In this document: positions 19,405 through 53,645 of the stretch, one piece after another
How positions within the stretch are numbered: the first letter of the stretch is position 1
Layout of the letters: the number at the start of each line of letters is the position of its first letter
Position numbers and translations under genes: made by a program
Source: an uncultured Bacteroidales bacterium
Lineage (GTDB): Bacteria; Bacteroidota; Bacteroidia; Bacteroidales; Paludibacteraceae
Length of the DNA: 64,000 nt
Direction: 5' to 3'
Assembly (NCBI GenBank): GCA_902800215.1
Contig: CADCDS010000007.1
Location: 4,010 to 68,009, forward strand
Notes under the pieces: generated by a model
Seen by the model: only the letters and a program-made list of their open reading frames with translations
Told to the model about the DNA's origin: nothing
Databases searched by the model: none

Positions 19405-20826
19405 TTATCGGATGAGGTAAATTTTCTCGGTGGCACGTGTGACGGCGGTGTACAGCCAACGCAGATATTCCCGTTTTTCAGTCTCCGTTTCCAACTGGCC
19501 GTTCGCCTTTAGCCATTCGCCGTTTTCGTCGATATAGACGTGTTTCCATTGTCCGCCTTGCGCCTTATGGCAGGTCACGCAATAGGCGAATCGCACCTGC
19601 AGCGCATTGTAATACGGTGACTCATAGATGCGTTTGATCAACTCCTTCTTGTTCTTTATCTCCGGATAGTCCTCGGCGATGCGGCTGAACAGTTCTCGCT
19701 GCAGCGTGTAGTTGGCTTCCGGACTATCCGTCGTCAAGGTGTCTAACCATACCAAGGCCTCGATCTCCCAACTGTAATCCACCGACCGCAAGGCCGCTTT
19801 GGCGAAATGAAAACCGTATAGTTCATGGGAATGATACAGGCGCTCGATCTCGAACATATCGCCATTGGCGATAAACTCCAGATCCTCGTACTCCTGCGCC
19901 CAGAAATAGTTGTTTTTCGTTACCATGATCCGGTCACCGTTCGACAGTTCATCCTCTTTCCACAGCACTCTCGCCCGAACACCCCCGTTATACAGGTTCG
20001 TCGTCTTGTTACTCCGTGCGATGATCAGCGTCTCTTCGGCACCCACTGTCCGCCAACTGTCCTCTATCGTCTCGATCAGCGCCTCCCCCGGCACCCGAAT
20101 GATATCTTTATTCGGAGTAATCGAAAAATCTCCAATCTCCAATTTCCAATCTCCAATCTTCTCCCTTATCCTCGTCGCCTCACTCAGTATCCCGCTGTCC
20201 AAGGCCTGACGTGCCACTTCCGTTAACCCGTAACCCGTCACCGATAACCCGTAACCCCTCATAAAATCCGCATCCAGCGCAGGACTGATCGAACTGCCTA
20301 CAGGCGGTAACTGCGCATCGTCGCCCAAGAGGAGTAGGGAACAACCTTGACCGCTATACACGTACTTTACTAAATCGTCCAACAGACATCCGCTACCAAA
20401 GGTAGGATTATCCCGCTGCCCGCTTAACATCGAGGCCTCATCGACGATGAAAAGGGTGTTGCGGTGTAAGTTATCGGATAAGGCAAACGCGTCCGAACCC
20501 AACTGCCGTTGCCGGTAGATCTTCTTATGAATGGTATAGGCCTGCCGTCCGGAATAACGGCTCAGCACTTTGGCTGCTCTACCCGTCGGGGCCAGTAACA
20601 CACACGGCTGTTTCAAACCTTCCAACGCCCGAACCAATGCACTCATCACGCTCGTCTTACCCGTTCCGGCGTAACCGCGTAAGACAAACGCTTTACGGGC
20701 TTCACGGCTGATGATGAACGCACCTAAGGCATCCAACAATCCCGCCTTCTCCGCATTCGGTTCAAACGGCAATTCCGCCTTAATTCGGTCAATTATGAAG
20801 TTTTCTAACATGCAATTAGCAATCAA
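19405..20826 (-). CDS. SF1 RecD-like ATP-dependent DNA helicase
   Basis: 473 aa with Walker A GYAGTGKTS, Walker B FIVDEASM, and C-terminal CVTCHKAQGGQW and YTAVTRATEK motifs. Carries two in-frame heptamer arrays. Confidence 0.8.
   Translation of the reverse strand: MIANCMLENFIIDRIKAELPFEPNAEKAGLLDALGAFIISREARKAFVLRGYAGTGKTSVMSALVRALEGLKQPCVLLAPTGRAAKVLSRYSGRQAYTIHKKIYRQRQLGSDAFALSDNLHRNTLFIVDEASMLSGQRDNPTFGSGCLLDDLVKYVYSGQGCSLLLLGDDAQLPPVGSSISPALDADFMRGYGLSVTGYGLTEVARQALDSGILSEATRIREKIGDWKLEIGDFSITPNKDIIRVPGEALIETIEDSWRTVGAEETLIIARSNKTTNLYNGGVRARVLWKEDELSNGDRIMVTKNNYFWAQEYEDLEFIANGDMFEIERLYHSHELYGFHFAKAALRSVDYSWEIEALVWLDTLTTDSPEANYTLQRELFSRIAEDYPEIKNKKELIKRIYESPYYNALQVRFAYCVTCHKAQGGQWKHVYIDENGEWLKANGQLETETEKREYLRWLYTAVTRATEKIYLIR
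20128..20160. repeat. heptamer micro-array (CTCCAAT type, CCAAT at 20132/20139/20146/20153), in-frame in the helicase gene
   Basis: Encodes ..KIGDWKLEIGDFS.. on the minus strand. Confidence 0.9.
20223..20259. repeat. heptamer micro-array (GTAACCC type, 5 units), in-frame in the helicase gene
   Basis: TAACCC at 20224, 20231, 20245 and 20252, with a degenerate unit at 20238. Encodes ..RGYGLSVTGYGLTE.. Confidence 0.9.
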
Positions 20827-20859
20827 AAATCACAAATTACAAATTTTTTTTGAAAAAAA

Positions 20860-20891
20860 CTTGTGTGTTTCAAAAAAATGTTGTACCTTTG
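20860..20891 (+). promoter_or_regulatory. promoter preceding the SRP-RNA candidate
   Basis: CTTG (20860-20863), N20, TACCTTTG (20884-20891). No ORF downstream. Confidence 0.55.
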
Positions 20892-21002
20892 CAGCCGATT
20901 TCTACTCAGGGTCCCCAAATAATTTTAATTTTTGGGGCAAGCGTAGAACAAAACGAAGCGTCATTGAGCGACTTTGTCGCGAGTCACGCGAGTTTTAGTT
21001 TA

Positions 21003-51053: not shown

Positions 51054-52043
51054 TTATTGTAGTTTTGTTGTTAATGACTTGATGATCGGTTTTGCTTTCT
51101 GCTTGTTGTACAGGATCTCGTACATCGCATCGACGATAGGGATCGACACCCGCAGACGCTCGTTGATGTCATGGATCGCCTTGGTGCCGTAGTAACCTTC
51201 GGCTACCATCTCCATCTCCATCTGCGCAGCTTTGACGGAATAACCCAGACCTAACATCTGACCGAACTGACGGTTACGGCTGAACTGCGAATAACCCGTT
51301 ACCAGCACGTCGCCCAAGTATCCCGAAGCGGTGATGTCACGAGGCACGTTGCTGACGGCCGTGGCAAAACGCTGGATCTCCTGAATGGAGTTGGACAGAA
51401 GCACGGCTTGGAAATTATCGCCGTAATGCAGCGCCTGACACATACCTGCGGCAATCGCGTAGATGTTCTTGAGCACCGAACTGTACTCCAGACCGATCAC
51501 GTCGTTCGAGATCGTGGTATGTACATACTCCGTCTGGAACAGTTTCGCCCATGCCTCGGCATTCTGGCGGTTCTCGCAACCGATGGTGAGGTAACTCAAG
51601 CGCTCCAATGCGATCTCCTCCGCATGACACGGACCGGCAATGACGCCTAATTGGTCATACGAGATACCGAAACGCTGGTGCAGATAGTCCGTGATGATGA
51701 TGTTCTCGTCCGGAATCATACCTTTGACTGCGGAAATAACCACTTTATGGGTCATATCCCGACGGATCTTACTCAGCGTCTGCTTCACGTATGGTGACGG
51801 GATGGCTAATATCAGCACATCGGATTGTGCTACGGTCTGGTTGATATCGGAAGAGAAATGAATACGACTCACGTCAAACTCCGCTACACCCAGATAATTC
51901 GGGTTCTTTCCGGTGGTGATGAACTCATCGATCACCTCCTGGCGACGGATGAACCAGTTGATCTCTCCCTGGTTCTGCATCACGATCTTCGCCAACGCCG
52001 TTGCCCACGAACCCGAACCTAAAATAGCTATCTTACGATACAT
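51054..52043 (-). CDS. gpsA: NAD(P)H-dependent glycerol-3-phosphate dehydrogenase
   Basis: Rossmann motif [14 protein letters not shown]. Start placed at MYRKIAILG (52043). Confidence 0.9.
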
Positions 52044-52049
52044 AGAAAA

Positions 52050-52086
52050 TTTCAAATATCAAATATCAAATATCAAATATCAAATT
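52050..52086. repeat. heptamer micro-array (TCAAATA x4 perfect, plus TCAAATT)
   Basis: Units at 52052, 52059, 52066, 52073 and 52080. Fills the lysS-stop (52080-52082) to gpsA-start (52043) spacer. Confidence 0.95.
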
Positions 52087-53645
52087 ACTTCCGGCTTCAT
52101 CGTCGGGAACAATAAAACCTCCTGTATGGTGGGTTGTCCGGTCATAAGGATAGCCAGACGGTCGATACCGATACCGATACCCGATGTGGGCGGCATACCG
52201 TACTCGAGCGCACGCATGAAGTCATGGTCGATCACCATCGCCTCGTCGTCGCCCTTGTCGGCTAACTTCATCTGCTCTACAAAGCGGTTGTATTGGTCGA
52301 TCGGGTCGTTGAGCTCGGAATAGGCGTTCGCCAACTCCTTACCGTTCACCATCAACTCGAAACGCTCGGTCAGTCCCGGTTTGCTGCGGTGCATCTTCGT
52401 CAGCGGGCTCATCTCGACAGGATAGTCGGTGATGAAGGTCGGCTGGATGAATGTGCCCTCGCAGGTCTCGCCGAAGATCTCGTCGATCAGTTTGCCTTTA
52501 CCCATATGCTCCGTATCTTCGACACCGAGTTTCTTGGCCTCCACACGGATCTCGTCTTCGGTCATGGACGCTAAGTCCAGACCCGTCTTCTCCTTGATGG
52601 CATCGAGGATAGGCAGACGGCGGTATGGTGCTTTGAAGTCCACTTCATGGTCACCGATCTGCACTTTGGTCGTACCGTTGACAGCGATCGCGATCTTCTC
52701 TAACAACTGCTCGGTGAAACTCATCATCCAGTTATAATCCTTGTATTGTACGTACAGCTCCATGCAGGTGAACTCAGGGTTGTGGCTGCGGTCCATACCT
52801 TCGTTACGGAAGTTACGGCCGATCTCATACACACCCTCAAAACCACCTACGATCAGGCGCTTGAGGTACAGTTCGGTCGCGATACGCAGGTACATATCCA
52901 CGTCCAGCGAGTTATGGTGCGTGATGAACGGACGAGCCGAAGCACCACCGGCAATCTGCTGCAGAATCGGCGTCTCCACCTCCGTATAACCTGCCTCGTC
53001 GAACACCTGACGCATGGTGCGCAGGATCGTCGCACGCTTGAGGAACGTGTCCTTCACGCCTTCGTTAACCACTAAGTCCACGTACCGCTGACGGTAACGC
53101 TGCTCCGGATCATTGAAGCCGTCGTAAGCCACACCGTCCTTGTATTTCACGATCGGTAACGGACGAAGACTCTTCGCCAGCACCGTCAGTTTCTTGGCAT
53201 GCACGGAGATCTCACCCATCTGGGTGCGGAACACAAATCCCTCGATACCGATGAAGTCACCGATGTCCAACAGCTTTTTAAATACGACGTTGTACATCTG
53301 CTGCTCGATAGTGGTCGGTGTCTCACCTTCCGCTACCGGCGCTTGGATATCATCGCGACTGACATAGACCTGGATACGGCCTTTGCTGTCCTGAATCTCG
53401 ATGAACGATGCCTTACCCATGATACGCTTACTCATCAGACGTCCGGCGATACGTACCGGATCACCGGTATGCCATTTCCCCGTAACCTGTAACCCGTCAC
53501 CCGTAACCTCATCGACGAAATTAGCTTTGATTTCGGTCGAGTACCCCGTCACCTCATATTCGGCTGCAGGGTAGGGATCGATGCCCATATCCCGCATGGT
53601 TTGCAGACTTTGTCTGCGTACGATTTCTTGTTCAGATAATTCCAT
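52080..53645 (-). CDS. lysS: lysine--tRNA ligase (class II)
   Basis: 521 aa with an OB anticodon-binding region (RIMGKASFIEIQD), motif 2 GRNFRNEG and motif 3 GIGIGIDRLA. Confidence 0.95.
   Translation of the reverse strand: MELSEQEIVRRQSLQTMRDMGIDPYPAAEYEVTGYSTEIKANFVDEVTGDGLQVTGKWHTGDPVRIAGRLMSKRIMGKASFIEIQDSKGRIQVYVSRDDIQAPVAEGETPTTIEQQMYNVVFKKLLDIGDFIGIEGFVFRTQMGEISVHAKKLTVLAKSLRPLPIVKYKDGVAYDGFNDPEQRYRQRYVDLVVNEGVKDTFLKRATILRTMRQVFDEAGYTEVETPILQQIAGGASARPFITHHNSLDVDMYLRIATELYLKRLIVGGFEGVYEIGRNFRNEGMDRSHNPEFTCMELYVQYKDYNWMMSFTEQLLEKIAIAVNGTTKVQIGDHEVDFKAPYRRLPILDAIKEKTGLDLASMTEDEIRVEAKKLGVEDTEHMGKGKLIDEIFGETCEGTFIQPTFITDYPVEMSPLTKMHRSKPGLTERFELMVNGKELANAYSELNDPIDQYNRFVEQMKLADKGDDEAMVIDHDFMRALEYGMPPTSGIGIGIDRLAILMTGQPTIQEVLLFPTMKPEVI
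53478..53510. repeat. heptamer micro-array (GTAACCC type, 4 units), in-frame in lysS
   Basis: GTAACC at 53482, 53489 and 53503, with GTCACC at 53496. Encodes ..DEVTGDGLQVTGKWH.. Confidence 0.85.

Follow-up and report, generated by a model that had tools for sequence, protein, structure and literature searches.

Heptanucleotide repeat arrays inside and between genes of an uncultured Bacteroidales bacterium

How does a non-triplet repeat come to lie inside conserved genes, and what decides on which strand it is tolerated? This question is raised by a stretch of 64,000 nucleotides (nt) from an uncultured Bacteroidales bacterium of the Paludibacteraceae (assembly GCA_902800215.1, contig CADCDS010000007.1, positions 4,010 to 68,009), which we refer to as the window. 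A preliminary description, made from the sequence alone, had reported four arrays of the heptamer GGGTTAC in this stretch, one of them in lysS. It held that such arrays occur only inside genes and only in the stop-free orientation, and explained this by insertion followed by purifying selection. Here we find that GGGTTAC is not a distinct element and that it is one family among many heptamer families. We consider it probable that the GGGTTAC runs are slippage-prone heptanucleotide microsatellites, which are filtered by reading frame, stop codons and loop tolerance and whose cassettes are shuffled by recombination. Among the long microsatellites of bacteria, those with heptanucleotide units are the most common, and they are generally taken to be excluded from genes. 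In this lineage, non-triplet repeats are found inside conserved enzymes including an essential tRNA synthetase, filtered to steps of 21 nt and to stop-free strands.

GGGTTAC arrays and their insertion status in three genes

The four arrays were found where they had been described, in minus-strand genes with GTAACCC on the plus strand, and they encode the VTGxGL peptides attributed to them. The first (20222..20258, minus strand) consists of five units and lies in a gene for a RecD/Pif1-like SF1 helicase (19405..20808, minus strand; Pfam AAA_30, AAA_19, UvrD_C_2 and PIF1). Its plus strand reads TTAACCC GTAACCC GTCACCG ATAACCC GTAACCC and its sense strand GGGGTTAC GGGTTAT CGGTGAC GGGTTAC GGGTTAA, encoding RGYGLSVTGYGLT, with GYGLSVTGYGL at residues 185-195. 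Two arrays lie in the gene for RlmD, a 23S rRNA m5U methyltransferase (22573..24066, minus strand; Pfam tRNA_U5-meth_tr, with relatives named RlmD). At site D (23028..23061, minus strand; GTAACCC CTCACCC GTAACCG GTAACCC on the plus strand) the array encodes DGLPVTGEGLQ, directly before the S-adenosylmethionine-binding YDLYTGTG motif. At site A, in the N-terminal TRAM region, a GGGTTAC/GGTTAGC-family array (23957..23991, minus strand; GCTACCC GTAACCC CTCGTCC GTAACCG CTAACCG on the plus strand) encodes LAVTDEGLRVA; it is badly decayed and was recognised mainly through relatives that read LAVTGDGLREA at the same site. The fourth array (53478..53508, minus strand; GTAACCT GTAACCC GTCACCC GTAACCT on the plus strand) lies in LysS, a class II lysyl-tRNA synthetase (52080..53645, minus strand; Pfam tRNA-synt_2 and tRNA_anti-codon; E = 8.5e-147 to PDB 3a74). 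There it encodes VTGDGLQVTG at residues 47-56 (site 1), in the linker before the oligonucleotide-binding (OB) fold. All four are degenerate, with never more than two perfect units side by side. Tandem Repeats Finder detected the arrays at 20224, 23031 and 53479 as period-7 repeats of 4.3-4.9 copies; the array at 23957 stayed under its threshold.

We compared the frequency of these strings with shuffled sequence. The 21-mer (GTAACCC)3, with up to three mismatches, has seven matches in the window and none in 100 dinucleotide shuffles, and the 14-mer (GTAACCC)2, with up to two mismatches, has nine matches where 0.20 are expected from shuffles. All matches of both lie on the plus strand. Scanning for periods of 4-12 nt revealed 16-20 arrays at period 7 and 0-5 at any other period; at a score of at least 10 there were 16 arrays at period 7 and 0-4 at the others, and shuffles gave about none. 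Tandem Repeats Finder returned more than 25 period-7 rows for the window. The units follow each other head to tail and comprise about ten types, including GGAGATT/GGAAATT, GATATTT, GATTTAA, GGCTAAT/GGCGAAA, CAGCCAA and GAGTGGA. A chance or compositional origin, for example a codon bias that yields GTAACCC-like strings, could leave the weak, about twofold enrichment seen for the single heptamer (11 versus 5.2). It does not produce the multi-unit matches, nor an excess confined to period 7, and the same arrays recur in independent assemblies: two contigs from rumen assemblies (ENA ERZ28614624 and ERZ27280671), found via the S8 peptidase gene of the window, are identical to it without polymorphism and identify it as rumen DNA. 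Shuffles and period specificity thus already refute this explanation, and its probability is negligible.

Two further ideas about the unit itself were discarded. A search for (GGGTTAC)3 hit 15 viral contigs, and three scrambles of the same composition hit 10, 3 and 10; these controls ruled out GGGTTAC as a privileged or telomere-like unit. Unit families that characterise whole genomes ("GGGTTAC genome" versus "CAATTAC genome") were rejected as well, since the related locus L183 has GGGTTAC in the helicase and LysS genes and CAATKAC at RlmD site D.

In LysS, 120 relatives at 85-95% identity revealed two hypervariable sites, at residues ~45-58 and ~102-114. The cassettes found over the two sites are VTGDGLQVTG, ANGEGLEAN, ASGEGLEAS, (ANG)n, (NGEMSASLNDA)n, PSAVSPQPS or nothing; on the DNA level PSAVSPQPS is (CCTTCAG)4 and the ANG repeats are 9-mers. 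Site 1 alone has 81 distinct alleles in 121 sequences. Those relatives of LysS, RlmD and the helicase that carry a source name are named as Paludibacteraceae. Bacteroides LysS had been tentatively described as shorter at this point, and indeed Bacteroides-type relatives read FKDEDEPRQVSVAGR (L198) and FKDDTEPRPVSIAGR (L213), 12 amino acids (aa) shorter than the window. Among the nearest array-less relatives, L186 is 21 nt or 7 aa shorter and L187, which is 95% identical, ~12-13 aa shorter; the site 1 array is missing from L185-L187, L198 and L213. The segment is an insertion directly before the OB fold, as had been proposed: Pfam tRNA_anti-codon begins at residue 64, and the 3a74 alignment agrees. 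An AlphaFold2 model of LysS made with 38 close relatives was unusable (mean pLDDT, predicted local distance difference test, of 38), and loop placement therefore rests on the 3a74 alignment and the Pfam domain boundary. Twelve codons upstream of the array, LysS has a VTGY motif (residues 32-35, GTG ACG GGG TAC, 53541-53552) that is nearly invariant in the 120 relatives (variants VTGF, VTGH, VTSY and VTAY). VTGY matches the GGGTTAC-encoded peptide, and the motif may be a fossil unit or a seed.

RlmD has four array sites, A to D, and all four are hypervariable among relatives. Sites B (23565..23599, minus strand; EIGNWKLENGD) and C (23292..23323, minus strand; IEDWKLEIGD) hold GGAGATT arrays in the window. 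Both GGGTTAC segments are insertions relative to short forms (VRINDIV at site A, AELTGDELVYD at site D), and these short forms coexist with many 7-aa-periodic cassettes that share the same boundaries. At site A the short form is the commonest in 120 close relatives and lacks 11 aa. At site D relatives have either the short form or the 7-aa-periodic DQLPMTNDQLP, ESQESRVESQE or EELKIKNEELKIK. Site C has the modal length in 92 of 121 relatives, but with differing heptamer-coded peptides (ISNFKFQISNF, VESQKSKVES, ITDHQSPITN). The TRAM domain, in whose region the site A array lies, is uncalled by Pfam in the RlmD of the window and annotated in some relatives (PF01938). The array may degrade the match to the TRAM hidden Markov model, and cassettes may in this way blur domain detection.

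The helicase copy has a different history. Across its site nearly all 120 relatives have the same length (20 or 21 aa), and the second GYGLT of the segment overlaps motif IV (YxLTxVxRQ); this copy is therefore an old fixed array and no recent insertion. The halves of GYGLSVTGYGL co-vary among the relatives (SYQLSVVSYQL, NYQLQITNYQL), and compared with distant PDB homologues the helicase is ~7-8 aa longer between motif III and motif IV. An overlap with a conserved motif and a length fixed across the clade would be expected if VTGxGL and related peptides were selected functional or structural motifs and the DNA periodicity a by-product. However, the LysS and RlmD segments are missing or swapped for unrelated peptides in many functional orthologues, the periodicity reaches synonymous positions, and the same units are found in non-coding spacers. 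We regard peptide selection as the primary cause as very improbable. The earlier proposal of insertion followed by purifying selection thus stands for LysS, for both RlmD segments and for the stop-free filter, whereas it fails for the old helicase copy and in treating GGGTTAC as a distinct element.

Arrays inside and outside genes

We next to the window included 83 related loci in a census, together 1.12 Mb of which ~89% is coding. A metagenome scan with LysS had returned four close relatives; the others are 74-80% identical Bacteroidales that were used as outgroups and in the census. The census yielded 120 heptamer arrays, with 28 situated well within a gene, 49 at a gene edge and 43 in intergenic DNA. 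The arrays are hence depleted from coding sequence: 92 of the 120 are intergenic or at a gene edge, although most of the DNA is coding. The claim that arrays occur only inside genes does not generalise and is a small-sample effect, four copies having been seen in a window that is ~95% coding. Being genic, the four GGGTTAC copies of the window belong to the minority of heptamer arrays in this lineage.

A scan of public genomes for GGTKAC arrays, in which GGTTAC and GGTGAC units were separated because of their opposite stop constraints, yielded counts that are a sample. Among the matches listed, such arrays span many phyla, including Nostocales, Bacteroidota, Streptomyces and Planctomycetota; near-perfect GGTTACN arrays in public genomes were 25 times intergenic, nine times at a gene edge and three times genic (all in the stop-free sense), and those in viral contigs were 22 times intergenic and never genic. 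Genic arrays of the TGA-containing GGTGAC unit, again among the matches listed in public genomes and viral contigs, have the stop-free orientation in 29 cases versus two.

The frame arithmetic behind the orientation argument is correct: whichever frame is read, (GGGTTAC)3 gives G-L-R-V-T-G-Y in some cyclic permutation, and (GTAACCC)3 runs into TAA. Of the 28 genic arrays in the census, 12 are stop-free in sense and contain stops in antisense, 13 are stop-free both ways and three are odd. Counting only genic arrays with a stop on at least one strand of the consensus unit, 12 of 15 are stop-free in sense. These 12 arrays, together with all three of the genic GGTTAC arrays listed from public genomes, support the exclusive use of the stop-free orientation; the rule is nevertheless a logical necessity and not new, as the argument was made before for TAACTGA repeats (MacGregor 2015, PMC4679880). 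Stops do not set orientation alone, since about ten genic arrays from the window and the related loci L183 and L184 have a unit that is stop-free on both strands, and here the purine-rich strand is always the sense strand.

Array density differs strongly between close relatives. L183 and L184 each have 9-10 period-7 arrays in 21.5 kb, about four per 10 kb, while L185, with a LysS ~92% identical, has none in 21.5 kb; its lysS and gpsA genes overlap, and the (ATTTGAT) array that fills this spacer in the window is missing. Array-rich and array-free genomes thus coexist within the family, and such sister genomes offer a natural contrast for finding the driver of 7-nt slippage. Within the window, eight period-7 arrays and several period-8 arrays occupy short spacers of co-directional genes. 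These spacer arrays begin at or over the upstream stop codon and finish 0-9 nt before the next ATG.

Length changes, cassette exchange and possible origins

Two related contigs, L271 and L269, are 96.5-96.9% identical to the window at 12.4-24.3 kb and allowed a direct comparison of length changes. Almost every in-gene indel between them and the window sits in tandem repeats or array cassettes. In L271 the RlmD site A array has gained 21 nt at 23992, which are three units (GCGGTTA GCGGTGA GCGGTGA). L269 has 14 nt or two units more, at 21112, in the intergenic GGAGATT array located at the S8 peptidase 3' end (21118..21145, minus strand). Likewise, the GGAGATT array of the helicase gene (20127..20159, minus strand; IGDWKLEIGD), the second array family in that gene, has variants in 7-aa (21-nt) steps in helicases that are 99.5-100% identical elsewhere. 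Close relatives therefore differ in copy number by whole units. A 96-nt tandem repeat (4.6 copies, 15385-15822) in the gene for a DUF5723/TSP_3/OmpA outer-membrane protein (14833-17427, minus strand) is also polymorphic at 97% identity, with one copy fewer in L269. The other indels relative to L271 and L269 are intergenic: a period-8 spacer array is changed by 7 nt, one insertion comprises 98 nt, and several more lie in a divergent stretch upstream of RlmD. The period-8 array at 14825 is unlike that of L269 in unit and length. In almost all of the ~360 relatives of the three genes the reading frame at the array sites is intact, and length variants are whole codons.

Besides changing length, cassettes are exchanged as a whole. 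At RlmD site B, L271 has a period-8-like cassette (KELTSERMNEL) in place of the GGAGATT array, with flanks that are 100% identical for ~90 nt on each side. In its S8 peptidase gene a GGCGAAW heptamer array replaces a CAGARNA-like cassette (22171..22199, minus strand) with sharp boundaries, and its helicase array is (CAATTAC)5 in place of (GGGTTAC)5, at identical length and with TTAC retained in each unit. At each array site we counted 46-81 distinct alleles among 121 sequences, and proteins that are 99-100% identical elsewhere often have unrelated cassettes. The route of one exchange could be followed. The RlmD gene of L305 is 78% identical to that of the window overall, yet it shows one mismatch over ~100 nt that comprise the site D cassette and flanking synonymous sites. 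L306, which is 98% identical to L305, differs from it throughout this tract. Judged from these alignments, the tract is short-patch homologous recombination that moves cassettes among related lineages. The cassettes come in dozens of alleles at each site, and short recombination tracts shuffle these; they inflate apparent protein diversity in metagenomic catalogues and are very fine strain markers.

In the reading that we prefer, arrays would originate and change length via strand slippage, whole units at a time. Between genes, the number of units would be unconstrained, and AT-rich, stop-containing units would build up in the short spacers from stop to start. Inside genes, four filters would apply. 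The net length change would have to be a multiple of three, in practice 21 nt or three units; the sense strand would have to be stop-free, which forces the orientation of TAA-containing units such as GTAACCC; the site would have to be a tolerant loop or linker; and the 7-residue-periodic peptide would have to be acceptable, favouring the purine-rich, hydrophilic strand and changes of Tyr to Asp or Glu and of Arg to Gln or Pro. Survivors would decay through point mutation, and whole cassettes would be replaced, in part at least through short-patch homologous recombination among related lineages. Of this scheme, the periodicity and its excess over chance, the insertion status, the length polymorphism in unit steps, the orientation filter and one recombination tract were observed directly; we infer slippage as the generator, selection on peptide composition and the first seeding of new arrays.

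Several observations weigh against slippage as a full account. Simple slippage offers no explanation for the recurrence of one degenerate 27-30-mer (GTTACGGGTGACGGGTTACAGGTTACGG) in different genes and at different sites. Slippage does not account for the upkeep of 7-nt periodicity in essential genes, where only 21-nt steps are viable, nor for the period of 7 and for array-free close relatives such as L185. The switch of a whole array from GGGTTAC to CAATTAC units at constant length, in a genome that is 96.5% identical, is a further difficulty. Finally, the wholly different cassette at RlmD site B of L271 lies between identical flanks, with which import from a diverged donor fits poorly.

The recurrent 27-mer could instead point to a tiny mobile element of ~30 nt (GTTACGGGTGASGGGTTACMGGTTACGG) that inserts in frame like Rickettsia palindromic elements (RPEs), so that the four copies would be independent insertions. 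In line with this, an identical 27-mer (GGTTACGGGTGACGGGTTACAGGTTAC) is found at LysS site 1 of the window and LysS site 2 of L184, with near-identical copies at both LysS sites of L183 and at RlmD site D. All these copies depart from the perfect unit in the same two ways, by T to G in their unit 2 and by G to A or C in their unit 3, and LysS relatives differ in whether site 1, site 2 or both of them have the cassette. However, these deviations are single-base changes that turn Tyr to Asp or Glu and Arg to Gln or Pro in a loop, and convergence is therefore possible; the helicase copy keeps TAC where Tyr matches the ancestral aromatic residue of motif IV. Array lengths vary by unit steps, dozens of other heptamer units act alike at the same sites, and GGGTTAC arrays are no commoner than scrambled ones. 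In the sequences read, which were not scanned systematically for this, neither terminal inverted repeats nor target-site duplications nor fixed ends were seen, and comparison with array-less orthologues revealed no duplicated flanks, although no search was dedicated to them. No transposase or reverse transcriptase was found among the scanned genes of the window, while a trans-acting enzyme may be encoded elsewhere in the genome. The sole documented movement is homologous recombination that carries flanking gene sequence. Taken together, we consider a mobile element unlikely.

A dedicated process might also write or replace heptamer cassettes at fixed positions, for instance a repair polymerase that slips reiteratively or a templated (retro)element, amounting to programmed or semi-programmed loop diversification. 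The large number of alleles per site, the unrelated cassettes in otherwise near-identical proteins, the sharp replacement boundaries with identical flanks, the constant-length unit switch that retains TTAC in every unit and the contrast between array-rich and array-free close relatives would all agree with such a process. On the other hand, at least one swap is ordinary homologous recombination, and a recombining population with old alleles yields equally sharp boundaries. A candidate enzyme was not found in the window or in the related loci used for comparison, diversification has no obvious benefit for the hosts, which are housekeeping enzymes of the cytoplasm, and arrays are commoner outside genes. 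We regard a dedicated process of this kind as quite unlikely. A broader version, that a rumen and gut clade of Bacteroidales has an active, lineage-specific process which makes new 7-nt-periodic cassettes, and replaces existing ones, at fixed loops of housekeeping proteins, is in our view improbable. If true, it would account for unit switching at constant length, for unrelated cassettes in otherwise identical proteins and for array-free sister genomes, and identifying it would explain why bacterial microsatellites prefer a period of 7.

Relation to known repeats and other features of the window

In every feature tested, the arrays of the window agree with heptanucleotide simple sequence repeats (SSRs). 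Contingency loci are slippage-prone tracts in or near genes of host-adapted pathogens that switch genes on and off by frameshifting, typically surface or restriction-modification genes. Our arrays are similar in being slippage-prone repeat tracts in or beside genes, but the observed variants are in frame and the hosts are housekeeping enzymes. Since the variants are in frame, the arrays are not contingency loci. The short tandemly repeated repetitive (STRR) heptamers of cyanobacteria comprise several unrelated tandem heptamers dispersed in one genome, as in the window, and are known as intergenic fingerprinting targets. We know of no description of STRR heptamers as in-frame cassettes in housekeeping genes. 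For Bacteroidales, our literature searches did not turn up any account of heptamer cassettes that are pervasive, hypervariable and in frame within housekeeping genes. The STRR heptamers of Calothrix and Nostoc are cited in the study of Xanthomonas and Nostoc heptamers discussed below (PMC4692102).

Heptanucleotide units are the commonest class of long SSRs (LSSRs) in prokaryotes, with slippage as the proposed cause (Mrazek, Guo & Shah 2007, as summarised in PMC4679880 and PMC4692102). According to these summaries, LSSRs share with our arrays the head-to-tail 7-nt units, the dominance of period 7, the sporadic distribution over lineages, the proposed slippage and the depletion from coding sequence. 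They differ in that many of our arrays form in-frame hypervariable cassettes within conserved enzymes, among them an essential aminoacyl-tRNA synthetase, whereas non-triplet units are in general expected to be kept out of genes.

Heptamer direct repeats adjoin start codons in Beggiatoaceae, cyanobacteria and some Bacteroidetes including Paludibacter (PMC4679880). The TAACTGA repeats described there for Beggiatoaceae, cyanobacteria and five Bacteroidetes, including Paludibacter propionicigenes (MacGregor 2015), lie directly upstream of start codons or over upstream stops, as do our spacer arrays. Their forward strand has stops in all frames, so that only the reverse orientation (LSVISYQ) occurs within open reading frames (ORFs), and the SYQLSVVSYQL of some relatives' helicases closely resembles this reverse-orientation peptide. 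That survey considered one dominant unit per genome, and the copies within ORFs were mostly in hypothetical proteins or at protein termini. In contrast, here many units occur per genome, at internal sites of conserved enzymes, with documented unit-step polymorphism and cassette exchange.

In Xanthomonas and Nostoc, GGGNATC and GGGGA(C/T)T heptamers (Rehm et al. 2015, PMC4692102) sit between co-directional ORFs. They likewise contain G3 tracts, prefer such spacers within 50 bp of gene ends and are under-represented on the coding strand. A perfect (GGGTTAC)n would on paper fit the G3N4 quadruplex motif as well. Unlike them, the GGGTTAC copies of the window lie in genes and in the sense direction, and, being degenerate, they have interrupted G3 tracts in place of four clean ones (for example GG/GGG/GGG/GG/GGGG in LysS). 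RPEs (Ogata et al. 2000, as reviewed in PMC10969869) are a different case, being selfish repeats that are tolerated in frame at permissive positions of unrelated metabolic genes. Our arrays agree with them in this respect, as they lie in frame in the LysS linker before the OB fold and in RlmD loops that short-form orthologues lack. As summarised in that review, RPEs are palindromic, resemble miniature inverted-repeat transposable elements and have a defined length of ~100-150 bp, whereas the genic arrays are short direct repeats of variable unit number with no inverted termini visible. The resemblance is in the outcome only and not in the mechanism.

The window is ordinary core chromosome, with murC, ftsA, ftsZ, lepA, pheT, glyA, prfC and others. 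Its arrays are unevenly distributed: the block of helicase, S8 peptidase and RlmD genes (19405-24141) has 11 heptamer arrays or cassettes in 4.7 kb, far denser than the remaining window, and these three genes are probably the least essential among the array hosts. One further array of this block lies in the S8 peptidase gene (21216..21248, minus strand; GAGTGGA/GATAGTC units). Two others lie in its spacers, a GGAAATT/GGAGATT/GATATTT array that spans from the stop of RlmD to the ATG of the S8 peptidase (22552..22585, minus strand) and an AATTTGT-type array ending at the helicase ATG at 20806-20808 (20812..20845, minus strand). Elsewhere on the minus strand, (ATTTGAT)5.6 fills the spacer between the LysS stop and the gpsA start (52047..52085), with the LysS TGA inside the first unit, and a TAATGGC/GAAAGGC array fills the spacer of the genes at 37076-38374 and 36383-37048 (37048..37078). 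On the plus strand, (GATTTAA)4.9 lies between the stop of the gene at 28412-30058 and an ATG at 30098 (30057..30090), an array that changes from GGAGATT to AATTTTA ends 4 nt before the ATG at 25851 (25813..25846), and an (AATTGGA/GATTGGA) array is placed between a cytidine deaminase stop and the start of an lptF/G-like gene (60560..60592). Also on the plus strand, CAGCCAA arrays lie inside a carboxylase-like gene (29902..29927; PTANSQQP) and, with CAGCTAA units, inside a gene with a T9SS-plug domain (49556..49592).

Other repeats were seen at further periods. Period-8 arrays (AATTGTTA, CGTCATGA, TTTAACNG, CGGGATAC) lie in gene spacers at 14796-14828, 28363-28402, 32178-32212, 39882-39920 and 63308-63345, and their CGTCATGACG units are palindromic themselves. 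A perfect 23-nt direct repeat (AGACCGCTGCGCTGATAGAATAT, 2.2 copies, 26489-26538) lies between an OmpH-like gene and the next gene. At 58500-58666 a perfect (CAGTAA)6.3 hexamer array starts from the stop of a TPR/aspartyl-protease gene and is followed by two 11-mer arrays (CCACCTGGTCT; CAATGGATGCT). The Bacteroidales small SRP RNA is encoded at 21002-21109 (plus strand; Rfam RF04183, 108 bits). Just upstream of it, ~98 nt (20902-21007) that hold a CCCCAAATAATTTTAATTTTTGGGG hairpin are present in the window and missing from L269 and L271.

In relatives from gut and rumen metagenomes, intergenic arrays, unlike the genic ones, are often paired with their own reverse complement at a distance of 30-130 nt. 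Examples are found in L201 (7032-7058 and 7090-7122), L208 (11722 and 11780; 12817 and 12881), L213 (7464 and 7621), L235 (9976 and 10061) and L232 (3639 and 3701). In one such pair, (AGTTGAG)4 and (CTCAACT)4 follow directly after the LysS stop. On paper, these inverted pairs could form a long hairpin with stems of repeats.

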